From IMG/VR virus record IMGVR_UViG_3300038825_001787: DNA of 64,000 nucleotides; one strand, 5' to 3'. The translations under genes were made by a program, and so were the position numbers. This stretch comes from an uncultured virus (IMG/VR IMGVR_UViG_3300038825_001787) (Duplodnaviria; Heunggongvirae; Uroviricota; Caudoviricetes). The notes below the pieces were generated by a model. That model saw only the letters and a program-made list of their open reading frames with translations. It was not told the origin of the DNA and ran no database searches. The stretch's first letter is position 1. Each line of letters opens with the position of its first letter. Positions 36,664-59,041 of the stretch are shown in pieces.

Positions 36664-36795
36664 AGATAGATTATCTTTCCTTTATTGGGAAGACGATTTA
36701 TCCGGATATCTTTCCGGATAGACGCTTTGGGTCTCGAACTGGATTTATTCAGTGAAGGATTTATTGAGATAAGACTACCAATCTTATCAGATAGA
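36664..36795 (+). ncRNA. duplicated structured non-coding element, copy 2
   Basis: Near-identical to 33302-33433. Confidence 0.6.
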
Positions 36796-38830: not shown

Positions 38831-39073
38831 AACGCACATCCAATTGGGGATACTAACCGTATCGCCATTACTAGCAAGAGTATAACACAAACTTTTACAT
38901 CATGTAAAAGTAACTTGATCAGTTGCCCGAAGGATAAATTTGTCGGGAATTTGGAGCAGAATAAGCAGGGCCTCACATCCCTACTTTGGCTGGCTATCCT
39001 CGACTTGATGTAAAGGCATACACTTGCGCCAACGGTGCGGCATAAGCAATTGCAAAACTTATGTCGCCCAACA

Positions 39074-39510: not shown

Positions 39511-41039
39511 TGAATGGAAAATAGTTTATGTAAAAAGAAAACCACTAAACCACGCAGTCACTGTGTGGAATTCCCGGGTGACCCGGTCGTTACAGTGGAC
39601 CGCTCGTGTACTACTATAGTAGACAAGCAAGTACAGAAAGTAGTTTAAAGAATGCATATGTGGAAATTTGCTAAAATTTCCCACATTATGTGGAAGACAA
39701 TCACCAAACGATGACTCTGGGACCTCGCTCCTGGAGGAGCCCGCATGCATGCAATGCTACGGGACCAGTCACCTGCACTATCATCCGGATACAAATGTTG
39801 TAATCGGAAAAGAAGCAGGAGATGCAACAAATTCTGGATACTATAACATAGTAATCGGAGATTTTGTATGGGTGGAAAAAGGCGTATGAGACGTGGTATT
39901 GTATACCGCGGACGAGGTAATAACCTCATCAGGACTTCTCAAGACGACCTAAAATTGTTTTCAGTAAGAATACGCAATGCTACTTCTACAGGAAGAGCGC
40001 CGCCCGAATGGCCCCAAGGACATGCTTAGCGCACGCCTGCCAGGGAAATTCTACAACTTACAATCTAGAAAATACTTTATGACAAATGTAATACAAATAA
40101 CCAAGCCGAAGACATCGACTGTAGTCGACCTTAGGTGGTATACCCGTGGAACAATTTACGGGTCGTTACAACAAAAAAATACATGAAAAATTTACTCGCT
40201 AGCGATAGCGAATACAAACATAAAAAGTGGCTATAAACCTTTTTAGGAAGGATTATGGACAACTTACACACGCGTACGTACATGATGCGCATTGGACAGT
40301 TAACTGAACAAACAACCCAGAGTACCTTTGGGTTAAACGAACGTTCAGGGTCCATCGCAAAAGAAAGAAGAAAGGTTATCAAACAACGAGAAATCCTCAT
40401 GGATGCCTTGTTGGGCTACACCATGAATTCATACAGTAATACAGTAACACTCAACTTTAAGACACGTGAAGAATTGTTTTGACTAATTATGGGACTGCAG
40501 TTTGCAAAACCCAAGTGCTCCATCGCTCACCTGAGTGATGGAAAATAGTTTAAAATCAAAGAAATTGTAAAAGATTTACATTGCCAGACAAAACTCCTCC
40601 CCCTACCGGGGTTAGGACACCAAAAGGTGTTTGGCCAAAAGGGAGAATACGGCGAGGGCACATTCCGTGCCGACCAATTCATCATCTTAGGAACCTAAGG
40701 TGTGTGGCGAGACCAAGATATCTAGAACCAAAGAAAATTCTTCTCAGGTTCTACGACTAGTGGCTCCTCATACCAAACAAAGTACTCTGCGGAGACGCAG
40801 GAACTAGGAACTAATTTGTAGACAAACTCTAAGAAAATTAGGTCACCTATTTACTGATGTAGATATGGTGGTCCTATTTAGAAACCCTAAGTTGTAAACA
40901 AAACAGAACTACCTAAATGTAATCACTGTTTAACAATATCACTGGCGATTGGTAATATGCAACCCGACTATATGTGGGGAAGAATGCTACCAAAATTCCC
41001 GCTTCCCATAAACCTATCACCAGAAGGAGTATTAATAAT

Positions 41040-42818: not shown

Positions 42819-43502
42819 ATGACAAAGAAAGGATTTGTAAAAGAAGGACTGGAAGCAAAAGTGAACGCAAAGGAGTTATTTACTCCGGCAGACTATTTTT
42901 CCGTTGTCCTATATTATAAAATGATGAAAGAAAAGTTAGAATTGCCAAAAATTCTGTCCAAACGGACAGACTTTAGTGATGCGCCACTAGAACTTGCAGA
43001 AGGTCTAGATGACATCATTCACGCAATGATGAATGAATTTGAAAAGAATAATATTGACCCAAGAGAAGAACAAGTAAATCTTGGAGAATTGAATATCTTT
43101 TCTTTTATTATGCACGACCCTTTGCTGAAACAAGCAATAGGTAATGTAGCAAAGCAGGTTTTTATGCGAGACGAAAGAATCGACCAAGAAACTGCAATTA
43201 AAAAAGCACAGGATGCTCTACCAGATTTGATGGGAGACTTCCAAGAAATTTTTTTACCAAACATGATTTCACGCACTTTACCGCAGATATTCCGCAGAAT
43301 GGATATGCATGGTATTGAGCAGAAGGATGCACTGGAAATGCTAGAGCCACAAGTAGCCACTATTGGCTACGAGGCCATAAGAAAGCACGGGTTTAAAATT
43401 GGTGAAGAACTATCAATAGGACTTTACTTTAAACAACCAGTCATCGACACGACTATGAGTGATGAATCGCGTAAAAGCGATGCAGACTCTATGTTTGGTT
43501 AA
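42819..43502 (+). CDS. hypothetical protein
   Basis: Starts at hairpin+TACTAG-ATG. Confidence 0.7.
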   Translation: MTKKGFVKEGLEAKVNAKELFTPADYFSVVLYYKMMKEKLELPKILSKRTDFSDAPLELAEGLDDIIHAMMNEFEKNNIDPREEQVNLGELNIFSFIMHDPLLKQAIGNVAKQVFMRDERIDQETAIKKAQDALPDLMGDFQEIFLPNMISRTLPQIFRRMDMHGIEQKDALEMLEPQVATIGYEAIRKHGFKIGEELSIGLYFKQPVIDTTMSDESRKSDADSMFG

Positions 43503-43532
43503 TTTGGCCTTTGGCCATACTAGAGGAATAAA

Positions 43533-44264
43533 ATGACAATTGAATTAACAATTAAAATTACCCCAGATGAATTACAAGAACTTGAAAAGAATAAGAGCGC
43601 ACTAATCGCTTTTATTTTGAAGCAAAAAAACACTACCACAATAGTGCAAGGTAATGAAGCAGGCAAGGTGATTGCAGATATGCAAAAGACAAAGGACAAA
43701 CAGGCTGTGGAAGAAGCCAGAAGAACTGCCCTTGAAACAAACCACCAAGTACTCGCTGAAATTATCAGAAACGCCAGAGATTTGAAGACAGTTAAACAGC
43801 AAGCAAAATCCAAGACCTCTCTTAAGAGGCACGAAATTGCTCAGTTGTCTACTGATAAGAAATGGCTTAGAAAACACAAGTTACCTTCTTTACCGGAGGA
43901 TGATGATGTGTTTAGAATGAATGCTAAAGACTTCGAGACTGAAGTAATTAATCATTTCAAGCAACGCTTAACAGGTAATGCTGAAAATGGAGAATATCTC
44001 GAAATTTACTTTTATGAACAGAATGCCAGTGGCGTAGAGTACCGTAATTGGTGCGCTAATATCTTGAAGGATATTGCTAATGGCAAGAAATATGAAGTAT
44101 CTGAAGACAGATTATTTAACACAATAAATGGTATCTTGATGACTTATGTACAGAACCTTCAAAGTACTTTACAGGAAGAAAATGCTTGGACCATTATTGT
44201 AGACTCCGAATACGCTATGATCGTTATTGCACCAGATGGTGCAAAACACATCTTAGCAAACTAA
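43533..44264 (+). CDS. hypothetical protein
   Basis: After hairpin+TACTAG and GAGGA RBS. Confidence 0.7.
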   Translation: MTIELTIKITPDELQELEKNKSALIAFILKQKNTTTIVQGNEAGKVIADMQKTKDKQAVEEARRTALETNHQVLAEIIRNARDLKTVKQQAKSKTSLKRHEIAQLSTDKKWLRKHKLPSLPEDDDVFRMNAKDFETEVINHFKQRLTGNAENGEYLEIYFYEQNASGVEYRNWCANILKDIANGKKYEVSEDRLFNTINGILMTYVQNLQSTLQEENAWTIIVDSEYAMIVIAPDGAKHILAN

Positions 44265-44281
44265 GCCCACGGGCTTTACTA

Positions 44282-44737
44282 GAAAGAAAGAAAGAACTGA
44301 GGCAGTTAATGCCAATGACGTTTTTTTCCAAGAGTTTACAACTAAACAGACAAAGTACAGAACACATTTCACAATTACGTGCTGAGAAACGTATTTTCAG
44401 AACTTCTAAAAATACAATTAGAAGTGCGGCAATATGTAAAATTGTGTCCTCGGTCTTTTCCGCTTAGTTGTAACTCTGGAAAAAATTCTGCTTATGCACG
44501 GCAAAAACGTCTAGCAACTTTTCACGAGGAACGTATTAATAAAATAACCGAGATCTGGCAATAGTAAAGCCAAGACTCTACAGCGCAGACGCGCAAAGAC
44601 AACAAAGTTGGGTTATTTTTGATTAATACGAATCTCGAGCAAAACTTGTCTAGGAAATTTTTGTCCCTCCCCGATAAGTCGGGATGTGCTATTTGGAATA
44701 AATCCAAAACCGCAGAATAATATAGTTTCTTTCACTA
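44282..44737 (+). ncRNA. K-turn-headed RNA with terminal stem
   Basis: K-turn at 44297-44320; ends GAAAGAAA/TTTCTTTC-ACTA. Confidence 0.6.
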
Positions 44738-44750
44738 GGAGAGACAGAAA

Positions 44751-45608
44751 ATGAATAAAAAAATATTTTCAATCGCACCCAGTTTCAACTGCCAACTCAG
44801 TTGCGAAGGGTGCTACTTAACAACAGATGTTACAAAAGAGATGAGAAATGCAACCAAGTCAGAAGCATACTATTTACGAGCAATTGAAACTGCTGCGGAA
44901 AATGGTTACACTGACTTTGCAATAACATGGAACCCATTTCCTGGGTCCTTTGAGATGACTAAAAAATATATACTGTACGCCAAAAGTTTGGGTTTCAACA
45001 CAAGTGTAACAACTGTGATGAGCACACTCGATGAAGTGGACGATGAAGATTTTTACAACAACTTAGATGTTCTAACTATCTCAGTAGACGATATGCGATT
45101 TGCAAGCATACGGAACTTTATTACCGAAAATCCGAACCGATTTGATTTGACAAAGAATCCTGCTCTTGTAATTAATTACAATTTACTTTGGACCCCAACG
45201 GTCTTTGAATGGCTTTATGAAAATGAAGACGAATTTGGAGAAATGTTGGAGTCTATTAATTACCCGAACACTGTACAACACCTAATTTACAAACCACTCT
45301 CGATTTACGAGCAGCAAGGTTTTAACTTTTGGGAAAACTACCAACGAGTATTCACAGAATATCCGTGGGTAAACATTACCGGAGACGGTAAAAAATACAT
45401 TGGAGATATTGCTCTAAACAACCTACTTGGAATTAACAACTGCCCTGGAGAAGATTTCCAGATGGTAGACGTTGACCCAATGGGCCAAGTTAGACGATGT
45501 CCAGAAAACCCCATCTCATATGATGGTGGTGATATTTACAAATTGTCCCAACTGCTTGCAGGTGGTACTAATTGTAAATCAGAAAAATGTAATTGTATCA
45601 CTGGTTGA
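44751..45608 (+). CDS. radical SAM protein
   Basis: CQLSCEGC (CxxxCxxC) and C-terminal SPASM/twitch-like cysteines. Confidence 0.8.
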   Translation: MNKKIFSIAPSFNCQLSCEGCYLTTDVTKEMRNATKSEAYYLRAIETAAENGYTDFAITWNPFPGSFEMTKKYILYAKSLGFNTSVTTVMSTLDEVDDEDFYNNLDVLTISVDDMRFASIRNFITENPNRFDLTKNPALVINYNLLWTPTVFEWLYENEDEFGEMLESINYPNTVQHLIYKPLSIYEQQGFNFWENYQRVFTEYPWVNITGDGKKYIGDIALNNLLGINNCPGEDFQMVDVDPMGQVRRCPENPISYDGGDIYKLSQLLAGGTNCKSEKCNCITG

Positions 45609-45616
45609 TACTACTA

Positions 45617-45738
45617 GGAGGAGTGAGCATAATTTTACAAGTTATGGTTCTTGTTTTATTGTCTCTTTTTTTAAATAGAGGTAGCAGTTGCTTGTGATGA
45701 GCAAACTACCTTTTTCATCAATGCTCACTTCTCCAACA
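45617..45738 (+). ncRNA. small RNA closed by a 14-bp terminal stem
   Basis: GGAGGAGTGAGCAT/ATGCTCACTTCTCC-AACA. Confidence 0.55.
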
Positions 45739-45768
45739 GATGAGTAAGAGACAAAAAACCAACAACTA

Positions 45769-46058
45769 GGAAGAGTAAAATCTGAGATCTAAAATCAATG
45801 ACGAAACGCCTCAACACCGGCGACTATAGATACGTGCCGATTTCTTATCCCGCCGATAAGAACCGTCGGAGTAGAGTATGCACTCTACACCTGCACCGTG
45901 AAAATAAATTTCACGTCAATAGTCGGAAACCCGGATTATGAGACGTCTCAGAACAACCAGACCACAAACGTGTCTGCCATAACCTGCCCTTTGGGGTCAG
46001 ACTATGGTGCCTGACATGCGTCAGTCAGTTGCCCTGAGAATATAGAAACTTCCAACTA
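45769..46058 (+). ncRNA. K-turn-headed RNA with terminal stem
   Basis: K-turn at 45782-45803; GGAAG/CTTCC-AACTA. Confidence 0.55.
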
Positions 46059-46346
46059 GAATGAGTAAAACACACTGAAGCCGAGAGGCTAATGACGTAT
46101 GGCGTCAGAGCCTGAACGGGGATAAACCCCTTGTCAGTCTACACTGGCAAAGCCTCAACAATACGTGAAGATACATTACATCCGCAAAACGATGTTTTTC
46201 GGTCTTCATCGACTGTTGAACGTTCTGACACCAGTGATAATATTACACTATCAAGATAAACTTGACGTGGTTCAAAGGCTCAATGAACTATCGTCACTCG
46301 AACTCGTGACTCATAATATTATCACATTAGGACTTACCATTCACTA
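46059..46346 (+). ncRNA. K-turn-headed RNA with terminal stem
   Basis: CTGA-AGCC-GAGA-GGCT-AAT-GACG at 46075-46097; GAATG/CATTC-ACTA. Confidence 0.6.
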
Positions 46347-46902
46347 GAAGAGTTAGATTAAACTACTGAGGCCGCAAGGCCGATGACGTAGTGTTAACCA
46401 TCGTTACAAAAGTGCACAATTCATGTAAGAGTAAAACCTTAGACCTGGTCTTATTCTTCGTGACACTTATGTAACGATAGTTAACACTGCACACCTGAAG
46501 GCGGCAAACAACAACACCCTTTGATAACGGGTAAACAAAAATTGTTTCTGCGATTTTGGCCTAAAAACCAACATTAACATTTGTGTAAGTTTTTTTGAGA
46601 AAGATTGAGGTTAGAAACAGCACTCTGAAGCGTGCAGTTCTAGCCTAGGGAAGACATCGTTACTTTAGACCCTGTTAAGGTCACCCCTAGTATTTCTAGA
46701 GGTGCAGTCCTCATACTTTGCATCCGCAAAGCACAAGGTGGTCGCGGAACATTCCGCTCAACACTATAAAAGGGATAATCCTCAACACGGTACTAAATTA
46801 AGCGATTCTTACCTAAAAGACAAGACACAGACCAATGGCGAATGCTAATGCATATCACGGATTGGACTTTCTCAAAAAAACAATATAGTTTACTCTTCAC
46901 CA
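46347..46902 (+). ncRNA. K-turn-headed RNA with terminal stem
   Basis: ACTACTGA-GGCC-GCAA-GGCC-GAT-GACGTAGT; GAAGAGT/ACTCTTC-ACCA. Confidence 0.65.
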
Positions 46903-46914
46903 GAAGGAGATAAT

Positions 46915-47190
46915 ATGTCAGATAATACATCAATATTTGTACGATACACCAGAAAACGCCATGAGTTCGAAGTTGCTCACCTAGAAATGGGTGAACAATT
47001 TGACGAACCATGTTGGATTGACTGTGCGACATTTCGCACAGAAAGCACTGCACTAAAATCTGCAGTAAACCTTTATGTTAATTTATTACACGATGACCGA
47101 GCACCAGAATATGGTATAACGCCATTATACGATGCCGACAACCTAATACCAAAGGAACAAAAAACTTTGAAATCATGGGTGGAGGCTTAA
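46915..47190 (+). CDS. hypothetical protein
   Basis: AGGAG RBS after the junction. Confidence 0.6.
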   Translation: MSDNTSIFVRYTRKRHEFEVAHLEMGEQFDEPCWIDCATFRTESTALKSAVNLYVNLLHDDRAPEYGITPLYDADNLIPKEQKTLKSWVEA

Positions 47191-47364
47191 GTATGGAAGA
47201 AAAACTTGATCAACTAATTAACTTACAAAAAGCAAACAATACTTTGCTTAACGAGATTAAAAAATCTATTGAAGTTTTCAGCGACTTCGTGCTAGAGGTC
47301 AAGCCTCAAGATGCACGAGAAGAAATTGAAAAACTTAAATAAATACAGTCTCTACTAGATTATT

Positions 47365-48933
47365 ATGGAAACACGAACATTAATTAATATTGGACACGAA
47401 GAAACTGGAACTGGCCTAACTACACCACTAACTCTATTTGAGGAGGGTGTTGAAGACTGGGAATTCAGAAGACGAGCGTACCAAGATTTTATGGCGGTGT
47501 TTCTAAAACAAGATCACAATATCGAAAAAGCATACATACAAGTAAAAGATGACAACATATCTATTACTTTACATGGCTTTAGCGGTAATGTGTTTTTTGT
47601 TAAATTTAACAAACCGCCTCGAACACAAGTTCCCGTTATGGGTGACTTTTTGTTAGAGGGAACTGCAAATGCAGCATGGATGCGCGCGTTTTACGCGGCA
47701 TGTGATCGATGGAACCTAGAGAATAACAATCCTCATAACAGATATTCCGTAGAATCAAGAATGACTGGATTAAGGGTACCGATTAGCCCCTCTCGTAGTA
47801 TGAACTACCAGCAAGGCGAGGTATATGATCTAAGTAGAGTCAGAGAAAATTTCCAACTTAATATGGGACTCTCTGGCTTTTCGATTCCTATATCATGGAG
47901 TCCAATAACTGGTGCGAATGGTGTTTTCAAAGACCTTTCTACCACAACGGGCACCCAATTGCAAACTGGCTTTGGCCGCACTGATGGCGGTGCAGAAACC
48001 AGTTACATCGAACATCTTCGGACATTCGGTGAAAACACAAACCAACGGCGAATGCTAAATTTAACACTGATCCCACACGTATCATGGATGCATGTGGGAC
48101 AAGGAGGATACCGCCAATCTGCTATGAGGCCAGTTTCAATAAATCTGGTCTTTGCTAGGAAAACAGAAAGCATTGTTAAAGATGCACTACCAAATGATTA
48201 CGATACTGCTACGTTGGCTTTCCTATGTGAAATGCCACTAGGCACAATACGTAGAGGGATGACTAAAATAAAGAAAACTAAACCCTTCGGTAGAATGACA
48301 CTCCATTACGATACTGATAGTGAAAAAATACTATCAAGAATAACAAATGGAGAGAATGAAGTCCAAAGAACTTCTATAGGTAATAATATAATATACAGTA
48401 CCCCTAATATTACAGGTACTAGTAGTATAACTTACCCAACGTGGTTTGATTTCATAGAGACAAACAAAACTTCAGTACCCTCTGTAAAAAGTCTTCTAAA
48501 CCTTCGCGGATTAGGTAGACTATCAGAAAGCAATCAGGATGACCATCCTGTTACTGAATTAATTGGTGCCACCACAAATGGTGCACTTGTTTATGGCTTA
48601 AAAAACAATGATTTTACTATCATGACCACACTGACTACTTTAGGTCACGCGGAAGAACACACCGCAGATGTCCTAAGTTCAGTTGGCGTGAATAAAAAAT
48701 CGGTTCGCCAGCCGGCTCAAGCAAATGCTGAGTCTGTCGAAAAGGAAATTGAAACACCAAAGGAATATGAAACTGAACCATTTTACATTAAGTGGAAAGA
48801 AGTTTCCGATGAATACAGAACCCAACGAGGAGAGATTCCCGTTAGAAACATACAAAAGGTATTCCTCGATTATTGCTTAACGTCACCAAGCGTGACAGAT
48901 GAAGACAAGGAAGAATTTAAGCGACTCAAGTAA
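47365..48933 (+). CDS. hypothetical protein
   Basis: 522-aa ORF after TACTAG. Confidence 0.75.
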   Translation: METRTLINIGHEETGTGLTTPLTLFEEGVEDWEFRRRAYQDFMAVFLKQDHNIEKAYIQVKDDNISITLHGFSGNVFFVKFNKPPRTQVPVMGDFLLEGTANAAWMRAFYAACDRWNLENNNPHNRYSVESRMTGLRVPISPSRSMNYQQGEVYDLSRVRENFQLNMGLSGFSIPISWSPITGANGVFKDLSTTTGTQLQTGFGRTDGGAETSYIEHLRTFGENTNQRRMLNLTLIPHVSWMHVGQGGYRQSAMRPVSINLVFARKTESIVKDALPNDYDTATLAFLCEMPLGTIRRGMTKIKKTKPFGRMTLHYDTDSEKILSRITNGENEVQRTSIGNNIIYSTPNITGTSSITYPTWFDFIETNKTSVPSVKSLLNLRGLGRLSESNQDDHPVTELIGATTNGALVYGLKNNDFTIMTTLTTLGHAEEHTADVLSSVGVNKKSVRQPAQANAESVEKEIETPKEYETEPFYIKWKEVSDEYRTQRGEIPVRNIQKVFLDYCLTSPSVTDEDKEEFKRLK

Positions 48934-48955
48934 TTGAGTTGTTTTACTAGATAAC

Positions 48956-49552
48956 ATGGGAACAAGAAATTTAACCATAGTGAAGCACAATGAAGAGATA
49001 AAAGTAGCACAATACTGCCAATGGGACGGATATCCGGACTCAGCAGGTTTGTACATACTGAATTTCTTACAACGGCTCGTTAGACCAGACTTCATAGATA
49101 AATTAGAGCAATGCTCTTGGGCTACTACAGAAGACCTGGTAAAAATGGACGAAATTATTGGAAGTATTGAAGAAAATAATTTAACAATACACGCCGATAC
49201 TTGGCATGCAGTATTTCCTGCATTCCATAGAAACACTGGTTGTCGTATACTCGAATTAATTTGTCCACCATATGGTGGGCCTAAGAGAGTGCTATTACAA
49301 AATAGTTTTAAATTTGGAGGAGACAAAATCTTTTGCGAATGGGCATGGGTAATTGACCTGGACTCGAATCAACTAGAAGTGTATTCTTCTAGCGACGGTT
49401 CCAAGGGCATATTCGAAGACCTAGACGATCCGGTTAGATTAACCGTTTCATGGGACTTAGACAACCTACCAACCCCAGAAGACTTTATTACTTACTTCGA
49501 TAAACTAGCAGCCGAACAAGAACGACTTTGGCGTGCAAACAACAACCAATAA
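48956..49552 (+). CDS. conserved phage-type hypothetical protein
   Basis: MGTR.L....QY.QWDGYP and CEWAWVIDLD motifs. Confidence 0.7.
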   Translation: MGTRNLTIVKHNEEIKVAQYCQWDGYPDSAGLYILNFLQRLVRPDFIDKLEQCSWATTEDLVKMDEIIGSIEENNLTIHADTWHAVFPAFHRNTGCRILELICPPYGGPKRVLLQNSFKFGGDKIFCEWAWVIDLDSNQLEVYSSSDGSKGIFEDLDDPVRLTVSWDLDNLPTPEDFITYFDKLAAEQERLWRANNNQ

Positions 49553-49584
49553 AGAACACAAGTTCTTTTACTAGAGAGATTATT

Positions 49585-50367
49585 ATGTACGAGAATAACA
49601 ATAATGATGAAGAAAAACAGAAACTTGCCGACAAAATAGACAAAATTGTCAATGGCGAGGTAGATGCCAGGATTGGAGACTGGGACTTAACTGATGAGCG
49701 CATACTAAGCGTTTGTGACGGTTTAGTCAGCGAATATACTATTAACAAATTTATTTGCAGTCCAAGTAGCACTTTGGTTAAATCCAATAAGCACATATCC
49801 GAAGCATACTCTAATGTCGATTGTCGGTTTATTATGACCGCAGTCGCAGAAAAATACCTCAACGTAAACCCTGCTGATGTAGATTTGCGTTTGGAGGAGA
49901 TGAAGGAATTTTATGTAAAAAGAAACCTGAAAGAATACAAATTCAGGAATTGTCTGTCTAACGGTGCTATTGACAAGCACTGGGGAAACAGACCGCATGA
50001 ATTAGCAATCATGGAATGGAGATGGGACAATGGTTTGGCGTTCATGGACTACAAGGAACGGGTGATAACATACCTAACCAACGTAGCCGGACTGATAGCC
50101 GACGCAGAAGCAGAAAATGCAATTAAGAGAGTGTTTCATATACACTCCGCAACTGCTTTACTGCAGAAAGATTTCAAAACCCTATCAAACCATGACATAA
50201 TGAAGAGTGGGCTGATAAGTCGCTCTACAAAGAAAGCAATTGGTGATTTTGCCAATGGTAGGCTTTCTCTTGATAAAATTGCGAAAGACCAAATATATCG
50301 AAACTGGCTCGAATCACGAAGTGAAAAAGAGTTAGATGATGAATGGGAGAACAGAGATTCCAATTAA
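49585..50367 (+). CDS. hypothetical protein
   Basis: Start reassigned to the ATG after the junction. Confidence 0.7.
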   Translation: MYENNNNDEEKQKLADKIDKIVNGEVDARIGDWDLTDERILSVCDGLVSEYTINKFICSPSSTLVKSNKHISEAYSNVDCRFIMTAVAEKYLNVNPADVDLRLEEMKEFYVKRNLKEYKFRNCLSNGAIDKHWGNRPHELAIMEWRWDNGLAFMDYKERVITYLTNVAGLIADAEAENAIKRVFHIHSATALLQKDFKTLSNHDIMKSGLISRSTKKAIGDFANGRLSLDKIAKDQIYRNWLESRSEKELDDEWENRDSN

Positions 50368-50386
50368 TGGGCGAAAGCCTTACTAG

Positions 50387-50755
50387 ATGCTTAACAGAAA
50401 TACGCAATTAACAAATGCTGCGCGCATAGAACTGCATAAAGAAACACTTGATGAACTACACACCGATTTCAAAATTGGTAAAAAGTTCTTAGAAATAAAT
50501 CAATACTTTATCAGACGTAATGCACAAAATACCACAGACTCACCTGAGTCGGTAGCGCACTTTAAAAGAATGATAAAAGCAAAAACATCCAATGTTTTTG
50601 CAGATTCTTACGCGAGTTACTATGGTGGGTTAACACCTCACGTTGTAATGAGTTCAGTCGAGTTCTTGTCAGAACAAGACCCAGACTGGATGGAAGCAAA
50701 TTTCAGTGGCTTAATGATGTTTTATAGACATCAGCAAGCAGAAATGACGGAGTGA
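50387..50755 (+). CDS. hypothetical protein
   Basis: Hairpin+TACTAG-ATG. Confidence 0.65.
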   Translation: MLNRNTQLTNAARIELHKETLDELHTDFKIGKKFLEINQYFIRRNAQNTTDSPESVAHFKRMIKAKTSNVFADSYASYYGGLTPHVVMSSVEFLSEQDPDWMEANFSGLMMFYRHQQAEMTE

Positions 50756-50761
50756 TAAAAC

Positions 50762-51259
50762 ATGGCAGGAAAAAAGTCTAGACTCGACAGTTCCGTAAAT
50801 CCCTATTCTTCCTTAAAGAAGACAAAGGCTATGCGCACGCTTGACGAATTTATTGACATAAAAAATGTGAGTCCTGCTCAAATCAAAGGCTCAAACCCAC
50901 CTAATTTCAAATACATTGATAAAAATGGTGCAGTTTATACCTTTGAAGTAAGAAATACCGATAAATATTGTACTACTTATTTGTGTACAAGAAAATCTAG
51001 ACCCGATAGATTGGTCGAACAAATAGAAATTTTGAATTATTGGAAACAATTCAACCTAGAAGTTGAATGTATAAATTACACACACTTAATCCCAGTTAGA
51101 GCAAAATGGATGGACACTATTGTGGCCTCTAGATTGCCCAGAGGAATCACCGACCACTTAAGTAGGACAGAATATGTCGTGCCAAATTGGATACGCAGTA
51201 AACTGCTTATGATAACTGATTCTAACGGCTTAACACTGAATTTAGAGGAGGAGTTTTAA
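50762..51259 (+). CDS. hypothetical protein
   Basis: 165-aa ORF. Confidence 0.65.
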   Translation: MAGKKSRLDSSVNPYSSLKKTKAMRTLDEFIDIKNVSPAQIKGSNPPNFKYIDKNGAVYTFEVRNTDKYCTTYLCTRKSRPDRLVEQIEILNYWKQFNLEVECINYTHLIPVRAKWMDTIVASRLPRGITDHLSRTEYVVPNWIRSKLLMITDSNGLTLNLEEEF

Positions 51260-51282
51260 CTACCTCTTCTTACTAGAGTACC

Positions 51283-51498
51283 ATGAGTAAAAAAGGAATT
51301 TTTGAAAATATAACAGGCATGTGGAAAAGACGCAAGAGCATAGGAGGAGTTACAGAAACCCACTTCTATGGTCAAATTAGGGATACTATTACCCTGAGTC
51401 CAGGCGATAAAATCCATATGTATGAAACAAGGGCCAAAGATAGAAATGCGAAATCACCGCAGTTTCACTTAAAGGTTCTACGCAAAGATAATGAATGA
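51283..51498 (+). CDS. small beta-rich basic protein (possible ssDNA-binding)
   Basis: GMWK...FYGQI...KSPQFHL pattern. Confidence 0.45.
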   Translation: MSKKGIFENITGMWKRRKSIGGVTETHFYGQIRDTITLSPGDKIHMYETRAKDRNAKSPQFHLKVLRKDNE

Positions 51499-51520
51499 TC
51501 TATTTATTACTTGCTACTAG

Positions 51521-53134
51521 ATGAACGATAGAAGAACTATTGAAGAGATGCTCGCACGCGACGATTTTAGCACCAAAGAACTAAACAACAGTTTGTTTTT
51601 GACTAAAAGAAATGCTTGCGGCAAAATACCATATGCCGATGGAACAGAAGCATATGACATCATAGAGTTACTACACTTGGAAAAATTCAAAGACCGAGTC
51701 CACTACAATTTACCGGTGGAACGTTTCGATGAATTTATACCCATGTATGAATCTTTTTTCTTAACGAAAACAGAGTCACCATGGGTAAGAACACGACAAA
51801 GCCCAGAAATGGGGTATGAAGGCCGTTGCACCATTGGTGCCGGCATTTATTACTGTCGTACCAATTATGAAATACACGAAGATGAAAACTACAATTACAT
51901 CGTATCAACGTTTGACATATACACAAATAATTTATTTGACAATGCTGTTGAACTATACAATGGTGTAACACCTGCTTATTATTATAGGGGCACAGAGCCT
52001 CGACATATAGAAGCAGATACTGGACTATCCAGATTTTACGAGTTGTTAAAAACAGCGCCACAGAATACAGGCTCAACAGGCTCAACCCGCCAAGTAGTCA
52101 GGCACAACCTAACCAACTTGGAACGGTTGTGGCAATGGAAAAGTGAACATCGCCTACCAGAAGTGAGGCGACATGCTATGGATACAAGTCGAGATAACAT
52201 ATCAGTTACCAGAAATGGACTGACTGCTTGTGTTGCGATTCGTAAGGGGTTCAACCCCGCCCCAGGAGATCCAACGGCAGAAGCCGATAGGTCTTTGGGG
52301 GACTACGAGTTGACTAAAAGGTGGTTTGGCAAGTCGACGGCAACTGAAAGGTTGCTATCAATGCGAAAGCGTCCCGTGTATTTAAATGAAACAAGAATAG
52401 TAACTACTACTAATTCTTTAACTAAGAAAAAAAGTGACAAAATGTTTCAAGGCATTTTGGCACGGCAGCCCTCTGCTAATGGGATTGCCGACAACCCTTT
52501 TGCTTTTGCTCAGATCTTTACTACAAACAGTAATGAACAGAGCGGGCAAGAACTACTTCGTTTGTTGAAAAACAGACTAAGTCCAAAGAATTACCCTGAA
52601 ACCCAAAAAAAGGTCCTGTTGAAAGCCGGGGCCTTTGTAGGCAACAATCCGCCTGGTACGGATATAATAAGGATAGACCATGTTTTAACAAGCGCCATTT
52701 CTCTAGTAAGAAAAGGTGACTGTAATGAAAGAATTGGTGGACGCAACTTATATGACTTTTGTCGATTGAACGATGCAGAAGGAGTGTTTGAATTAACTCT
52801 CCCAAACAATGCAACACTACGACTAGACAAGAAAGTGGCTACACTAGACAATGGTATATACAAAGTTTGTGTCACAGAAGACGTGACCGATATTATACAA
52901 TATCTATCTACAATAAGGACTGCATTCGGCAGCGTAACTGTCGAAATAAAAAAGGGAAGACTAAACCTAGAAACAGGCTCAGTGAACGAAGTCCGTCGAA
53001 AAAGACGCGCTAGAATCATGAGTCCTTCTACTAACACAACTCCTACTTCGAGAAGAACAAGGTATGGAAGATTTAGACTAGGAAGTGCTTTTGGACTTTT
53101 AGGAAAAGAAAATAAAACGGATGAAAATGAATAA
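51521..53134 (+). CDS. hypothetical protein
   Basis: 537 aa, TACTAG-ATG. Confidence 0.75.
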   Translation: MNDRRTIEEMLARDDFSTKELNNSLFLTKRNACGKIPYADGTEAYDIIELLHLEKFKDRVHYNLPVERFDEFIPMYESFFLTKTESPWVRTRQSPEMGYEGRCTIGAGIYYCRTNYEIHEDENYNYIVSTFDIYTNNLFDNAVELYNGVTPAYYYRGTEPRHIEADTGLSRFYELLKTAPQNTGSTGSTRQVVRHNLTNLERLWQWKSEHRLPEVRRHAMDTSRDNISVTRNGLTACVAIRKGFNPAPGDPTAEADRSLGDYELTKRWFGKSTATERLLSMRKRPVYLNETRIVTTTNSLTKKKSDKMFQGILARQPSANGIADNPFAFAQIFTTNSNEQSGQELLRLLKNRLSPKNYPETQKKVLLKAGAFVGNNPPGTDIIRIDHVLTSAISLVRKGDCNERIGGRNLYDFCRLNDAEGVFELTLPNNATLRLDKKVATLDNGIYKVCVTEDVTDIIQYLSTIRTAFGSVTVEIKKGRLNLETGSVNEVRRKRRARIMSPSTNTTPTSRRTRYGRFRLGSAFGLLGKENKTDENE

Positions 53135-53146
53135 TCCGTTTACTAG

Positions 53147-53665
53147 ATGAAATATATTTGTAAAATATGTGATTTGGAATTCACGACAGAGGCAGCAGAA
53201 AAACTGCATAACTCTGTTTTTCACAAAAAGAAAGCCAAAGTAAAGACACCGAAAAAACCACCAAAGAAGGATAAACTCCTGGCAACTGATGCTAGGAAAG
53301 GATACCTTTCTCGTGGCGGTGAAAATACCAAAGTATTCTTGCCCGATGGAAAGTCTACTAAATATAAAGACTACATCAAAGGAATGCGAGACGGCTTTCC
53401 TGACTTCAAAGTCGGCGATAAAATCGCTGCGAAAGAAGTTAGAAATTTGTTTAAGCACGATATATATAATACAAAAGATATCAAAGGTGCTAAACTGGAA
53501 GTTAAAAGAATTGTCAAAAATAAGAATGGTATTAGAAGATACTATTTGGAGAACAGCAAAGTGCGATTGACGTGGTCCGAAGGGGTCGCTTTCAAGAGTC
53601 ATGCTGAAAGAAAAATGCGTGACAAGCATATTATACTTCCAATTAATTTGTTTCACAAAAAGTGA
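53147..53665 (+). CDS. C2H2 Zn-finger basic protein
   Basis: CKIC...F.......H....H. Confidence 0.65.
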   Translation: MKYICKICDLEFTTEAAEKLHNSVFHKKKAKVKTPKKPPKKDKLLATDARKGYLSRGGENTKVFLPDGKSTKYKDYIKGMRDGFPDFKVGDKIAAKEVRNLFKHDIYNTKDIKGAKLEVKRIVKNKNGIRRYYLENSKVRLTWSEGVAFKSHAERKMRDKHIILPINLFHKK

Positions 53666-53772
53666 AACTACTAGATGAGTTCGGAAGATAACCCCATGCG
53701 GGCCTTCCCATTAAGTAAGAACAATGATATCAGGAATTTTGAGTGTGGTTAGAATATAACCACATTCATCAG

Positions 53773-53967
53773 ATGAGTAAAATAGAAGATGACGTATGTC
53801 AACAAATACAAGACCGTGCCAAAGTGGGGCTAAACAAATATGGAACCACTATGGAGCGTACTGACCTTTCTACAATAGACTGGTTGGAACACGCCAAACA
53901 AGAAGCAATGGATCTTGTCATATACTTAGAGCGTATCATACAAGATATGCGTGAGAAGGAAGAATGA
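53773..53967 (+). CDS. small all-alpha phage protein (MazG/dNTP-pyrophosphohydrolase-like)
   Basis: R..VG..KYGTT..R.DL...WL.H..QE.MD...YL. Confidence 0.55.
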   Translation: MSKIEDDVCQQIQDRAKVGLNKYGTTMERTDLSTIDWLEHAKQEAMDLVIYLERIIQDMREKEE

Positions 53968-53982
53968 ATCTTCCATTACTAG

Positions 53983-54264
53983 ATGGAAATCAAAATTAAA
54001 ATGGAACCCGAAGACATACCAAAAATATTGAAGGGGATTGGAAACGTCGAACAACCGGCAGAGTCTGTTGTTGAGAAACGTGCCAAAAGGGCCGACATTG
54101 GACAAAACAGAGTCCCCTGGTCGAAAAGAGAGAAGGCTTGGCTGAAAAAGCAGGCAAGACCAACCATTGATAACGGTCATCATCGGCAAGAATTGAAAGA
54201 AATGTTTGGCAATATCCGAACAGCGAAGTCAATAGATGCTTGTTGGAGAAGACTTACCAATTGA
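53983..54264 (+). CDS. Myb/HTH-like small protein
   Basis: WSKREKAWL...FG..RT.KSI...W.RL. Confidence 0.45.
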   Translation: MEIKIKMEPEDIPKILKGIGNVEQPAESVVEKRAKRADIGQNRVPWSKREKAWLKKQARPTIDNGHHRQELKEMFGNIRTAKSIDACWRRLTN

Positions 54265-54317
54265 TTGAGCATAACATAGTAAGATTAATTACTAACTATG
54301 TTTCCTCAATTTACTAG

Positions 54318-54518
54318 ATGACACTGATGCCAAAGCAAAGTGAGAACCTGGGACTAGAAATCTCAGAGCCTATATACAGGCTGGCAACAAGCATATACGA
54401 AAAGCACAATTCCAAGGTCTTAGCAGGCAGTGGAAAATGGATGCCCACAAACGTAGCGGTTGACTTGGCAAAAAAAATGCTAAGTGAAACGAATGCTAGT
54501 CGGTCTAATACTAGATGA
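54318..54518 (+). CDS. hypothetical protein
   Basis: Hairpin+TACTAG-ATG. Confidence 0.5.
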   Translation: MTLMPKQSENLGLEISEPIYRLATSIYEKHNSKVLAGSGKWMPTNVAVDLAKKMLSETNASRSNTR

Positions 54519-55747
54519 GTAATATAAACGAAAATCAAGGATACGCAGTTGAAGGAAGATTGAAAGAAACAGCCAAAGGGTATTTAGCCCTCTGGTCAAT
54601 TAATGCAGGTAGGATGAGATATTCCGACCTTGTTACTGTTGCTAAGCGCAATGGTTTAACACAGGGTCAGATACCGAAACTACGAACCGCAAAGAATGCT
54701 TTTGCAGTTGCAAAGGATACTATACTTAACTCCGCATTACCAACACTCTTAGAATTAGATGGTTGGGATGGAGCGGTCAAACAAAGTTTAGATGTTAAAC
54801 ATCTAAAAAGAGGAAATGAATACCAAGTCTCGGTTAGACGAGAAGGTAGAATGCATGGGAAGTTGCACAAGGAAAGTTCTCCAGTCTTTAGACTGGAATT
54901 CTCTCCTCCAGATGCCTTTGACCATGTTGCATGGGTACAAAACTACATGCGCTCTTTTTGGGATGCTGAATACATCAAAGAAATTGAAGCAGGTACTAAA
55001 CAAAGACCTGTACCTAGTCAAACTAGGGTTTGTATACGTATAGAAGGCTATTGGGATGACAGCGATATTGACGTCGAGTTGATGTTGAGAGTCAGAGACC
55101 GAATAAGCCAAGCATTTGAAGATACTATTGTTAGTATTGACGAAACGCTTTTGCGACAACACATTAAAGAGACATTGAAATCTTTAAACGGTATTAGTTT
55201 CCTTGCAGGCAAGGGGGCTACATATATTCCCATTACAGACGAGGACAGAGATTCAAAATCTGCGTCTTTGGAGTCTATGGCTAATATTATCACCTCTTTT
55301 TCTAGAGGATACCAAACAACCGCAAACGATGAAAACTACTATGACGAGAATGGCAAACCCATCAATCGTTATGGAACATCAAGTAATTTTAGATATCTAG
55401 GATACCTAGATAGCGAAAGAGAGATGCAGTACATAAGAGAAGATTTGGGTTCCAGTATTTCGAGAGAAATAGCGGAGTTCCAAGCAGAAGTCGTTAAGAC
55501 TGCTGCCTCTTTTGATACAACTAAAGTCGAACTTTTCGAGAAGCAACTTACCAAATTGCAGAGAAAGAAAACTAATATTACTAAAAGAATCGGCAATATG
55601 CGCACAACATTGGGCGGAGAGATTCCTATTCGTAGGAGACTCCATTCTGATGTTCAGCAAAGATTTGGTAGCCGAATCTCAAACATAACTCAGACCCACA
55701 ATGCAGTTAGTACTACATTGATGAAGTTAACTGAGTTTGACAATTGA
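54515..55747 (+). CDS. hypothetical protein
   Basis: 410 aa, TACTAG-ATG. Confidence 0.75.
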   Translation: MSNINENQGYAVEGRLKETAKGYLALWSINAGRMRYSDLVTVAKRNGLTQGQIPKLRTAKNAFAVAKDTILNSALPTLLELDGWDGAVKQSLDVKHLKRGNEYQVSVRREGRMHGKLHKESSPVFRLEFSPPDAFDHVAWVQNYMRSFWDAEYIKEIEAGTKQRPVPSQTRVCIRIEGYWDDSDIDVELMLRVRDRISQAFEDTIVSIDETLLRQHIKETLKSLNGISFLAGKGATYIPITDEDRDSKSASLESMANIITSFSRGYQTTANDENYYDENGKPINRYGTSSNFRYLGYLDSEREMQYIREDLGSSISREIAEFQAEVVKTAASFDTTKVELFEKQLTKLQRKKTNITKRIGNMRTTLGGEIPIRRRLHSDVQQRFGSRISNITQTHNAVSTTLMKLTEFDN

Positions 55748-55765
55748 GGCTAATGCCTCTTACTA

Positions 55766-56481
55766 GAAAGTAAATACAACTGATGCCCTTCGGGGCAAAT
55801 GACGTATCGCCGAAAATTCCGGTAGAGCACGCTCTACAGGAACGGCTCATCCTCCGGAACTGCTTCAGGCTGCTGCGCAGACTACTGCGTATCTGAAGCC
55901 TTTACCCTAACATCCCTATCACCTTGCGGCTCCGCTGCGGTGAAACGGAATGTAAACGGGCACGCCTAAACTACAGTTTCCTCGAGCGAGTAAACTGGTT
56001 TAACGGCTAATCCTACGGAATAACAATCAGGATTTAGTCCTGATAGTATGAGCCTATTTACCGCCTCTACCCTCATTGGGGTAACCCAATTAACCTTCTA
56101 AAGAAGGGAGGGCGAGAGGCTTCGGCTCCTCGGAACTACTACGGCACGAACCAAGATTGAGTTAATCAGTCAAGAGAAATATAAGTACCCGCGTACTGAC
56201 ATTTCACATGACTTACTCAATTTTCATGACTTACCCTATGTAGAAACATAGATTTGAACAACTTGAGGCGGCTCTGCGCTGCCCTAAAGGGACATCAAAT
56301 CTCTGCGTCTACCCCTAGTAAGTCACGAAAGTTCATACCTTGAGCCACGGTGGAATCCAGAAACAAGTCTTCTGGATTCTGCCCTGCAACTGTATGCTCT
56401 GCGGAACCCCGCATACAACGTTGCGGCTTGGCTCAACCGGTTCATCGCCAAGTTCCTCGGAAAATAGTTTTACTTTCACTA
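55766..56481 (+). ncRNA. large K-turn-headed RNA with terminal stem
   Basis: CTGA-TGCCC-TTCG-GGGCA-AAT-GACG at 55780-55804; GAAAGTAAA/TTTACTTTC-ACTA; many internal hairpins. Confidence 0.65.
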
Positions 56482-56510
56482 GAGCCTCGAAAGAGGAAGA
56501 GTTGATTGAC

Positions 56511-56903
56511 ATGATTGAAGAAAGAAACAACATAGTTGACCAAGCAATTACTGATGTAGCACCCGCTACACCAATTGCTGAGCAACCCAAGAAAACAAAA
56601 ATGGCGCCCATAACGAATGAAATATTTATTCGTATGTGGAACCAATCTGAATATGTCAATGATGCAGCAGAGGCGATGGGTATGAACCCCGCTTCTGCAA
56701 GAGCAAGGGCCGCAAAACTGAGGGCTATATTTGCGAAAGCAGGTGTAGAAATACAGTTGAAGAAACACCCTAAAGCACCAAGAAAGCAAAAGAAGTCGTT
56801 GGTCAATGACCTAGACGAACTTGAAAGACTTGCTGCGATTGCTAAAGCATCATTACCATCAGAGCCAGCAACACAAAGTGCACCATCAGAGCAATCTGAA
56901 TGA
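56511..56903 (+). CDS. HTH-like protein
   Basis: VNDAAEAMGMNPASARARAAKLR; start after the junction and RBS. Confidence 0.55.
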   Translation: MIEERNNIVDQAITDVAPATPIAEQPKKTKMAPITNEIFIRMWNQSEYVNDAAEAMGMNPASARARAAKLRAIFAKAGVEIQLKKHPKAPRKQKKSLVNDLDELERLAAIAKASLPSEPATQSAPSEQSE

Positions 56904-56921
56904 AACACTTGTGTTCTACTA

Positions 56922-57476
56922 GAGAGAACTAAAACACCGATGCCGAACAAGCATGTGACGTAAATTAGTAAATTAGAGATTACACATAGCAAGGAAGTCA
57001 AACTGATTTTCTGCTAAATCTAAATCTGCATGGTGATCCAAGCAAGTAATCACGAATGGAATAAATCCACTCGCTGATTTGTATAGGGCAGTTGCCCTAC
57101 TCAAATCTTACCTGCCCAGGGTCACCAGCACAATTAGAATAAAGAATTCACATTCGTGAATTAAACTACCACCACATTAGAACGGTAGTCTGCCTTAGAA
57201 TTAATTTTTTAACATCCGCAACTGGAAACGTTCCGCGTGTCTTCACATTCACCTTTACAAAGTAAAGGCCGCACAATACTGTGCCACCAACAGTGAGGTA
57301 AAATCCTCACAACATTGGTTGAATGTTCCAAACACAGCGTCCGAGTTCCAATGCGGAACACCAAAAATCAATAAAAGTTAAACACTAAAACTAGGCAGCA
57401 TTAAACTGCCAAAGTAAAGCGGCTTATATAAGCCCAATAGTAAAACTTGAAACACTAAAAACTAGAACTCTCACTA
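56922..57476 (+). ncRNA. K-turn-variant-headed RNA with terminal stem
   Basis: CCGA-TGC/GCA-TGT-GACG at 56937-56960; GAGAG/CTCTC-ACTA. Confidence 0.5.
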
Positions 57477-57808
57477 GATAGACCACCATATTTTATATTC
57501 ATCACCATGAAAAAATAATGGTTTATATGACAATCGGGAAAGACCGGTACCAGATGAACAAAACTAAACCACTACAACAACTCAATGCTGATTTCCTAAA
57601 AAAAGATTGGACGTATGAAAAATGACGCTTTTAATTTATGGACGCATGGATTAAAAATGAAAGTATACTTGTTGGAAAAGGCGACAGGGGTAAAACCCGG
57701 CTCTGTGGTCACAAGTTTTGCGTCGGACACCATGAAAGAATGGAACACTATGCTGTGGGCCCGAGCGGTGACAGTCATATTGTTAAAAGGGGTGAGATTC
57801 CCCACTAG

Positions 57809-59041
57809 ATGAATATCAAATGGAAGACAGAAGAGACGCGTTGTATCCATAAAGACCCACGGGACTTTAGCAGATGCAAAATTAAAGACGTTAAACCTGG
57901 AGAATACTTATGTGAACACCATAAGTACGATCTCGCATCATTTGTAAATGACCCAACAGCCTGTATTGATATTATGGCTGAAAGGTTTCCAAAAAGACAT
58001 CATCCTGCCTGTGACCGCAAAGGAGAAAATGACTGCGAATGTCATGACTACTCTAGAGGCGCAAGTATGATGATTACCATGAAGGCTGCTTTCAAAGAAA
58101 GCAAACTTCAGAGTAAACTATACCAAAAACACTTGAAAGTAACGATGGCTGATAAAGTCCGTCGAATCAAGAACTATTATAGGAATATAACAGAGGATGA
58201 TATATATCTACCTCCCTATAGTAATTTTAGACAGTATAGATTTTTCACATGGGAACCAAAGAGTCAGAGAATCGTTGTCAAAGTATTGAAAGATAATGTA
58301 AGGACAAAGAAAATTCTGCTCAGTCATCTACGAAGACTGGCACCTATACACGTGTATTACACAACAGGTCAATGGCTAAATCCGCAAGGAATTGGTCCTG
58401 ACCCTGAATCACGTAAAGGTTTAGCCAAGATGCGAAAGAAAGGTTGGTGCGCTAAAAAAAGTAAGAAAGTTACTTTGAAGCGATACCATAACACCATGTT
58501 GAAACGAGATTTATATTTCGATATAGATTACGACAACAAAGACTATCATCAAGGAATAAGGATGGCCGACGAACTAATACATGCAATAAATAAACACATT
58601 CATTGTTATCAGTTCAACGGCGTAAAACAACAAATCGTATTTAGTGGAGGCAAAGGCTTCCACTTGATAATAAACGGATACTATGACGAAGCGTTTACTA
58701 GACCTAGTAAGCGTAAATTGTACGACCTATTGAGAAGAGAGGCTATAAAAAAAGGCGAAGATAAAAACGCCGCTTTCTTACGCTACTCTGTCAACCACGA
58801 AAACAAAAATGCAGCGATTGAAAACCACTACAAAGACATAGTGGATATTCTGCAATACGAAACAGACCTTTTGTTAGATTGGATGGTTACATATGATAAC
58901 CGTAGAATAATACGATTGCCTGGAAGCGTGCATGGAAAGTCCATGCGTGTTTGTAAGGAAATTAATTTTAGTGACGATAATGTTATTAAAAACCGTGCTG
59001 GAAAACCCGTTGGGTATGTTCCAGCAGACCCCATTCCTTGA
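57809..59041 (+). CDS. archaeo-eukaryotic primase catalytic subunit (PriS-like) with N-terminal Cys/His extension
   Basis: HVYYT, DLYFDID, FSGGKGFH, D..VT.D..RIIRLPGSVHGK. Confidence 0.9.
   Translation: MNIKWKTEETRCIHKDPRDFSRCKIKDVKPGEYLCEHHKYDLASFVNDPTACIDIMAERFPKRHHPACDRKGENDCECHDYSRGASMMITMKAAFKESKLQSKLYQKHLKVTMADKVRRIKNYYRNITEDDIYLPPYSNFRQYRFFTWEPKSQRIVVKVLKDNVRTKKILLSHLRRLAPIHVYYTTGQWLNPQGIGPDPESRKGLAKMRKKGWCAKKSKKVTLKRYHNTMLKRDLYFDIDYDNKDYHQGIRMADELIHAINKHIHCYQFNGVKQQIVFSGGKGFHLIINGYYDEAFTRPSKRKLYDLLRREAIKKGEDKNAAFLRYSVNHENKNAAIENHYKDIVDILQYETDLLLDWMVTYDNRRIIRLPGSVHGKSMRVCKEINFSDDNVIKNRAGKPVGYVPADPIP

Follow-up and report, generated by a model that had tools for sequence, protein, structure and literature searches.

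How are transcript ends set in a viral genome whose genes and non-coding RNAs follow one another from one copy of a short motif to the next? The question is raised by a 64,000-nt stretch of DNA (IMG/VR record IMGVR_UViG_3300038825_001787; below, the window means this whole stretch), which is part of an uncultured marine virus encoding its own archaeal-type RNA polymerase. Seven non-coding units between positions 44282 and 57476 begin with the G of an ACTAG junction and end with a sequence complementary to their own 5′ end. From the letters alone they had been interpreted as RNAs that mimic tRNA ends and are linked to RNase P. We find that this interpretation holds for the structured RNAs and their exact boundaries but not for the tRNA mimicry or the link to RNase P. 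Six of the seven are members of one RNA family, apparently not described before, whose 5′ part forms a predicted kink-turn (K-turn) hairpin.

Seven units with paired ends

Each of the seven stems that the sequence-only reading had described is present: the G after ACTA opens a terminal helix, P1, in every unit. The units and adjoining features are listed with their support from folding, from orthologs or from the covariance model R1 described below.

44282–44737, plus strand: K-turn RNA unit 1, 456 nt; P1 GAAAGAAA/TTTCTTTC, tail ACTA (R1 46.2 bits, fold)
44297–44320, plus strand: K-turn module of unit 1, CTGA-GGCAGTTAATGCC-AAT-GA-CG
45617–45738, plus strand: 122-nt RNA; 14-bp terminal stem with one G–U, tail AACA; no K-turn module (no R1 match)
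45739–45768, plus strand: 30-nt spacer starting G-ATG; it holds a frame of 9 codons that is closed by the TAG within the following ACTAG
45769–46058, plus strand: K-turn RNA unit, 290 nt; P1 GGAAG/CTTCC, 5-nt tail AACTA; K-turn 45782–45803 (R1, fold)
46059–46346, plus strand: K-turn RNA unit, 288 nt; P1 GAATG/CATTC, tail ACTA; K-turn 46075–46097 (R1, fold, z −6.06)
46347–46902, plus strand: K-turn RNA unit, 556 nt; P1 GAAGAGT/ACTCTTC, tail ACCA; K-turn 46366–46388 (R1, fold)
55766–56481, plus strand: large conserved K-turn RNA, 716 nt; P1 GAAAGTAAA/TTTACTTTC, tail ACTA; K-turn 55780–55804 (orthologs, z −11.9)
56922–57476, plus strand: K-turn RNA unit, 555 nt; P1 GAGAG/CTCTC, tail ACTA; CCGA-type K-turn 56937–56960 (R1, fold)
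57477–57808, plus strand: non-coding unit before the primase gene; hairpin GGGG..CCCC flush against ACTAG 57804

When the seven units were folded to minimum energy without constraints, the 3′ end of each paired with its first nucleotides, from position 1 on, and a tail of 4 nt (5 nt in 45769–46058) stayed free. Comparison with shuffled sequences, performed for two units, showed that both fold much more stably than the shuffles, with z = −6.1 (46059–46346) and z = −11.9 (55766–56481). These values, the folds and the helices conserved in relatives bear out the status of the units as structured non-coding RNAs, and the structural domain extends exactly from the G after AYYA (Y, pyrimidine) to 4 nt before the next G. 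Only short frames were found when the units were inspected for coding potential. A 65-codon frame at 57615–57812 was considered as a gene and rejected, because indels in relatives are not multiples of three and the frame is lost there. Since the RNA at 45617–45738 lacks the 5′ module shared by the other six, it is a different small RNA outside the K-turn family.

Terminal complementarity in relatives

Relatives were obtained by alignment of primase homologs, which yielded 80 metagenome loci with a primase identity of 43–97%. We scored P1 in the window and in these loci after de-duplication, admitting only Watson–Crick helices of at least 5 bp that start at the G and end flush against the junction motif. 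The end complementarity, on whose conservation in homologs the sequence-only reading had staked its interpretation, is kept in 77 of 106 distinct units, compared with 4% in controls with reversed or shuffled 5′ strands. Before de-duplication, 97 of 127 modules with a 5′ junction have a flush P1 of at least 5 bp within 1600 nt; the loci share strain content, and only the de-duplicated counts are independent. Among the 97 units P1 measures 5 bp in 26, 6 bp in 41, 7 bp in 22, 8 bp in one and 9 bp in seven, and the tails, also counted without de-duplication, are ACTA (47), ACCA (35), AACA (9) and others (6). The G–C closing pair is present throughout. About a quarter of the units have no flush P1, some of them being offset by 1 nt like window unit 45769.

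P1 varies in sequence from unit to unit: at least 13 different versions occur, each with its own 3′ strand (for example GACGAA/TTCGTC, GGAGAA/TTCTCC, GAGGAA/TTCCTC and GACAGA/TCTGTC). The abutting array of locus L079 (180–341, 342–1147, 1148–1586 and 1587–2004) carries one complementary pair per unit, namely, in this order, GAGAGT/ACTCTC, GACGAA/TTCGTC, GAGAGA/TCTCTC and GAAGAG/CTCTTC. Several helices meet at the junction that P1 closes; the first of these arms is a hairpin with CUGA on one side and NAU-GA-CG on the other.

A putative kink-turn module at the 5′ end

The 5′ module of the six units consists of a purine-rich P1 strand, an A-rich linker, C(U/C)GA, a hairpin, N-A-U, GA and CG. In box C/D kink-turns, CUGA stands opposite RUGAUGA, and L7Ae, 15.5K or Snu13 bind. 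Because the module fits this consensus, we infer a box C/D-type kink-turn with its regular helix capped by a hairpin; the helix, the 3-nt bulge, the tandem G·A/A·G pairs and a further pair can all be assigned at the level of sequence.

The module is present in most of the 80 loci, always on the primase strand. A strict pattern matched 147 times on the plus and 12 times on the minus strand; a pattern for sequence only gave 78 distinct matches on the plus strand and 2 on the minus strand. The stem is carried by 47 of these 78, compared with 5% of shuffled inner segments, and this is the unbiased figure for the stem, since selection for the alignment of 76 modules (A2) required a stem of at least 3 bp. 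Throughout A2, CUGA/CCGA and UGACG are invariant, GA is invariant on both strands, the C–G pair is formed in 76 of 76 modules, and the bulge reads N-A-U with an invariant U. In the hairpin 97.7% of the cells are paired. Each of its four pairs has been altered on either strand, and the covariation score of A2 was reached by none of 500 shuffles.

The covariance model R1 was built on A2, and its training sequences are among its matches. In the window it found the six units and 39094–39140, all on the plus strand; in 82 related loci it gave 159 matches at E ≤ 0.01, 159 on the plus strand and 0 on the minus strand. It matched neither of two more distant viruses (L083 and L001). Searches of the metagenome-assembled genome that holds L083 and of 151 genomes of the order gave no match either, a result that had no positive control and shows little. 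Rfam searches of the whole window at the gathering score and of 43500–58500 at E ≤ 5 returned only the tRNA and two chance-level matches.

Given the kink-turn hairpin, the RNAs probably act as particles bound by a host protein of the L7Ae type. They share with box C/D and C′/D′ kink-turns the CUGA strand, the opposite 3-nt bulge ending in U, the GA and the G that pairs with the C of CUGA, as well as the regular helix on the CUGA-3′ side. They differ in having both boxes in one 5′ hairpin, D-like then C-like, in position 3b, which is C and not U, in their length (100–1400 nt versus 50–70 nt) and in that no second C/D pair or guide regions are evident. The layout of box C/D guides was not found in the units, where both boxes lie in one hairpin 15–40 nt from the 5′ end and the 3′ region has RAAUAG, not CUGA; the sole Rfam C/D match is at chance level and lies elsewhere. 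GOLLD and ROOL, phage-associated RNAs known from Rfam (see also PMC12286853), are likewise large structured viral RNAs of unassigned function with a conserved core and variable arms. The present RNAs differ from them in having no Rfam match, in occurring as many copies of one family that all share a K-turn handle, and in their exact boundaries. Up to about ten copies per 10 kb occur in these viruses, of a family absent from Rfam, and the exact boundaries together with the covariance model make it searchable and testable.

The smallest members, of 102–104 nt (L067, 961–1062; L068, 8615–8718), consist of P1, the K-turn hairpin and one more hairpin, and carry a conserved UAAGAGGAGGACAU stretch that looks like a Shine–Dalgarno sequence.

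The 716-nt RNA upstream of the primase

The unit at 55766–56481 has 20 distinct orthologs of 522–973 nt. They lie upstream of the primase gene wherever the locus reaches it, in some loci with other short units or small genes in between. Identical sequence blocks alternate with variable hairpins, and the core blocks are identical between genomes with only 51% primase identity, so that the RNA core is better conserved than the neighbouring proteins. Unaided, RNAalifold recovered from the 20 orthologs P1, the K-turn hairpin, three long-range helices and a 3′ hairpin, several of which covary.

A check for compensatory changes in the terminal stems, proposed along with the sequence-only reading, was carried out on this unit: pairs 1–5 of P1 are formed in 20 of 20 orthologs. 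One compensatory change, GAAAG/CTTTC to GAGAG/CTCTC, occurs in three sequences and is probably a single event. The hairpin preceding the unit shows another, GAGGC..GCCTC to GAGGT..ACCTC. Single-stranded words are repeated in the ortholog core (alignment A3), CCUACGGA twice, CUCCUCGGAA / UUCCUCGGAA, and CGGCUC several times; they may be docking sites for protein or RNA.

The junction motif

ACTAG occurs 105 times on the plus and 58 times on the minus strand of the window and is concentrated between 34.4 and 64 kb, where it precedes almost every gene. The block and two informative junctions are the following.

34394–63752, plus strand: block in which nearly every unit starts YYT-ACTAG-A, mostly as ACTAG-ATG (leaderless type) or ACTAG-GGAGA...ATG
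34394–34398, plus strand: junction hairpin-AT-ACTAG-ATGGAAC, 8 nt before tRNA-Lys 34406–34482
54510–54514, plus strand: junction inside the last codons (ACT AGA TGA) of the 66-aa gene 54318–54518 and directly before the ATG of gene 54515–55747; no hairpin upstream

The commonest arrangement is ACTAG-ATG. At 28 gene-start junctions positions −4 to −2 are pyrimidines, T stands at −1 in 93% and A follows the G in 89%; at 16 ACTAG copies inside genes, T at −1 is found in 25%. The same motif thus stands before about 28 protein genes, whose mRNA units lack an end-to-end stem, as the sequence-only reading had itself cautioned. Between 31.5 and 34.5 kb the variant AATAGA is used, and relatives mix ACTAG, ACCAG, ATTAG, AACAG and CATAG. 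A hairpin of at least 4 bp within 4 nt upstream was found at 15 of 27 gene-start junctions and hence is not required; 6 of 25 other ACTAG sites also have one, though some of these 25 are probably real junctions. Codon shuffles predict 19.2 ACTAG copies inside genes, against 14 observed (z −1.25); for the looser A[CT][CT]AG the numbers are 84 and 66 (z = −2.2).

Junction 54510 is our example of read-through, a wider scan for such cases being too noisy to count. The 66-aa gene is found in five loci at 47–82% identity, and always ends in ACT AGA TGA and overlaps the next ATG (ATGA). If the junction were obligatorily cut, the message of this gene would have no stop codon.

The 22-mer GACGTTATAATAATGTAAGGAG occurs three times on the plus strand (31549–31570, 31875–31896 and 36625–36646, with 0, 0 and 1 mismatch), with none expected by chance. 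A hairpin follows each copy, and in two of them a junction of the form A(A/C)(T/A)AG then lies 32–34 nt from the TATA-like core. This 22-mer may be a primary promoter. The TATA element of archaeal promoters is spaced at −26, for which 32–34 nt is too far, so that the element is no evidence either way.

The tRNA-Lys(CUU) in the region 34406–34490 has an encoded CCA end, and an AATAGA junction lies 7 nt further on. In a related strain, represented by a contig from an RNA library, the deletion of a 198-aa gene coincides with the two ACTAG copies that flank it (48951–49594), and 18 diverged letters stand there instead; the genes therefore behave as motif-bounded cassettes.

Initiation, cleavage or mobility

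The explanation that we favour, to which we assign about an even chance, is that the viral polymerase uses the junction as its start signal, the stems serving to form and protect 3′ ends. As an initiator or core promoter, the junction would give rise to leaderless mRNAs and to RNAs beginning (A)GAGAG, while hairpins after genes and P1 in the RNAs would generate and shield the 3′ end immediately ahead of the following start. In P1 the 3′ strand, rich in pyrimidines, would at the same time be the pyrimidine tract of the next start signal; this double use would account for the constant flush position of P1 and, under initiation and cutting alike, for its purine/pyrimidine composition. The acceptor-stem look (G1–C pair, 4-nt AYYA tail) would be a by-product of the packing. 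One mechanism would serve mRNAs, tRNA and RNAs, and the read-through gene is accounted for, crossing as it does the hairpin-less junction 54510 in the window and in five loci. The tRNA has its own 8-nt leader after the junction. The first 30 kb, polymerase subunits included, are motif-free and operon-like and the later part has one gene per unit, a division that fits host-transcribed early genes and virus-transcribed later genes. Poxvirus late promoters (TAAATG) and the hairpin rule for mimivirus 3′ ends offer parallels in viruses with their own polymerase of archaeal/eukaryal type, with an initiator that abuts or overlaps the ATG and with hairpins at gene ends; here the host looks prokaryotic, the motif is another one, the start site is putative, and non-coding RNAs use the signal too.

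Several points weigh against initiation at the junction. The RNA evidence consists of assembled contigs from four RNA-library runs, which yielded no transcript starts or ends, and such contigs are no proof of single transcripts. They bridge the junctions at 42818, 43523, 44282, 44738, 45617, 46902, 57477 and 57808, as would fit long precursors, although DNA carry-over or read-through is also possible. Back-joined (circular) forms at unit ends are not among the joints listed for these contigs, the sole back joint (55942→55849) lying within a unit. The promoter would be short, with about 8–10 informative positions and no upstream element, and, as the units abut without spacer, only the preceding RNA could harbour an additional element. 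An A at −1 with G at +1 is unusual, and a start at the A would fit better. A flush P1 is equally expected if a nuclease cuts AYYA|G, the weak depletion of ACTAG in genes (14 versus 19.2) separates the models poorly, and protein binding to the K-turn is itself read off the sequence.

Clearly less probable, though to be taken seriously, is punctuation of RNA, in which long precursors transcribed from the block at 34–64 kb would be cut by one viral or host endonuclease, specific for sequence and context, at YYU-ACUA|GA into leaderless mRNAs with a 3′ hairpin and RNAs whose P1 leaves a 4-nt tail. RNase III cuts phage T7 early RNA, and tRNAs punctuate mitochondrial transcripts; there, too, structured elements mark exactly where one cistron ends and the next begins, and the upstream RNA keeps a stem at its 3′ end, whereas the present block has a conserved linear motif, some stemless junctions and one gene overlapping a junction. 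Cutting agrees with the abutting units, with a P1 or hairpin that ends 0–4 nt before the motif, with the location of the whole block on one strand and with a long-range P1, which can exist only in RNA. The contigs bridging at least eight junctions lend it weak support, and the TATA-like 22-mer that heads the block at 31549 and 31875 and recurs at 36625 could be the primary promoter of such a precursor. Yet the 66-aa gene would lose its stop codon at 54510, a hairpin of at least 4 bp is missing near 12 of 27 gene junctions, and the 14 ACTAG copies inside block genes fall just short of the 19.2 expected. The window proteins, most of which have no family, include no recognisable nuclease, and here, too, the RNA contigs showed no ends.

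Cutting by RNase P, whether of the host or with a viral RNase P-like RNA, we regard as unlikely. It would read P1 and an N-Y-Y-A tail and cut 5′ of G1, one cut making both ends, so that abutting arrays would need one cut per junction. The G1–C pair with a 4-nt tail in six of seven window units and 77 of 106 distinct units is in its favour, as are the tails, with ACCA in 35 and ACTA in 47 of 97 (loci not de-duplicated) and mostly pyrimidines as middle bases; the GG of the L15 loop in RNase P RNA could pair with such pyrimidines. The tRNA acceptor end, the 4.5S RNA precursor and viral tRNA-like structures resemble the predicted RNAs in the G–C first pair, the 4-nt single-stranded tail and ends that form a closing helix. 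Unlike these substrates, however, the units have no cloverleaf or T arm, the helix measures 5–9 bp instead of 7 and is followed by a K-turn arm, and the tail is mostly ACUA, with ACCA in about a third of units; the supposed mimicry of tRNA ends is thus not borne out. ARAGORN found only the tRNA-Lys at 34406 and no tRNA-like structure or tmRNA in the units, Rfam tRNA, tmRNA and tRNA-like families gave no match in 43500–58500 at E ≤ 5, and neither program detected an RNase P RNA in the units, the 716-nt RNA included (no Rfam match at the gathering score or at E ≤ 5), whose consensus helices, in our reading, did not suggest a P4-type core. Nor does the junction coincide with a tRNA 5′ end, since the true tRNA starts 8 nt past it, and about 28 mRNAs are bounded by the motif with the G outside a helix, so that RNase P would have to be joined by a second mechanism for the same sequence. 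A more far-reaching proposal, which we hold to be improbable, makes the 716-nt K-turn RNA (520–970 nt in relatives) the RNA subunit of a viral ribonucleoprotein that would cut at YYU-ACUA|GA and release leaderless mRNAs together with acceptor-like K-turn RNAs (helix plus A-Y-Y-A), which a CCA enzyme could repair or extend. Such a system would parallel tRNA punctuation, with a ribozyme of the virus's own doing the cutting. Archaeal bulge-helix-bulge excision was rejected by inspection, since successive units show no complementarity between their first 4 nt. We give scarcely any credence to the units being small mobile DNA elements in which P1 would supply the terminal inverted repeats and ACTAG the target-site duplication. 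Inverted ends flanked by the same 5-mer would suit such elements, as would the relative that lacks exactly the gene between ACTAG 48946 and ACTAG 49570, but a 10-nt microhomology, TTTTACTAGA, explains that indel. Moreover, ordinary genes are likewise preceded by ACTAG, every copy of the K-turn module is on the transcribed strand (159 plus, 0 minus), the internal helices covary as in RNA, and in loci with 51–90% primase identity the 716-nt unit has not moved from its site upstream of that gene. Whether a viral archaeal-type polymerase or a matching nuclease acts there, the motif-bounded, mostly leaderless block offers a clean system for the definition of transcript ends.

The virus and its host

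The marine setting is indicated by the stretch 44000–53999, which several studies recovered in full, in a total of 14 DNA runs from marine or seawater samples; a megablast search of 44000–58000 against phage records gave no match. The main replication and transcription genes are as follows.

21105–23831: family B DNA polymerase
24122–28804, minus strand: RNA polymerase largest subunit, 1560 aa, with all five Rpb1 domains
29997–30236, minus strand: 79-aa protein with an RpoH/Rpb5 C-terminal-type domain, adjoining the polymerase
57809–59041: archaeo-eukaryotic primase

Two RNase H genes, one serine recombinase gene and the single tRNA-Lys are also encoded. Among solved structures the largest subunit is closest to archaeal Rpo1N and to subunits of eukaryotic Pol III and Pol II, with bacterial β′ far behind. 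In metagenomes the polymerase has 1745 scored relatives, some of them filed under archaeal or bacterial bins, and a search of viral contigs with it gave two loci at 33% identity, without ACTAG bias and without K-turn units. A 410-aa protein had no relative among the viral contigs searched. No nuclease, RNA ligase or L7Ae-like protein was recognised among the window proteins scanned, most of which have no family. The literature searched, including the accessible part of PMC11706807, gave no published description of the polymerase, the motif or the RNAs of these viruses.

Genes in the first 30 kb have Shine–Dalgarno-like leaders and overlapping stops and starts, which argues for a prokaryotic host, probably an archaeon. 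The kink-turn handle would point to an archaeal host too, and to RNA–protein particles made by the virus.

Further features of the window

A seventh, weaker K-turn module and several smaller elements lie outside the units treated above.

39094–39140, plus strand: K-turn module, R1 20.5 bits, E 0.011
5950–6246, plus strand: SWIB/MDM2-domain protein
14055–14615, plus strand: T4 endonuclease V-like pyrimidine-dimer glycosylase

The weak K-turn module falls within 2.1 kb without a convincing gene (38870–41040), which also contain an AACAG junction at 39070 and RAAAATAGTTT motifs near 39517 and 40540. A possible P1, GATAG/CTATC-ACCAG ending at 41018, would delimit a unit of about 1.95 kb, although a 5-bp match can be due to chance. 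By eye, 33296–33440 and 36660–36800 form a pair of repeats of about 140 nt that start with A(A/C)AGATAGATTATCTTTCC and end with ATCAGATAGA; this looks like a second non-coding family of the block.

The gene at 44751–45608, between K-turn unit 1 and the 122-nt RNA, encodes a CX3CX2C motif and gave a weak Radical_SAM match (E 0.014, below the cut-off). A small, basic protein of helix-turn-helix appearance accompanies the K-turn array and the primase, both in the window (56514–56903) and in locus L031 (9082–9381), and the two products, compared by eye without alignment, have the stretch NSARARAAKLR in common.

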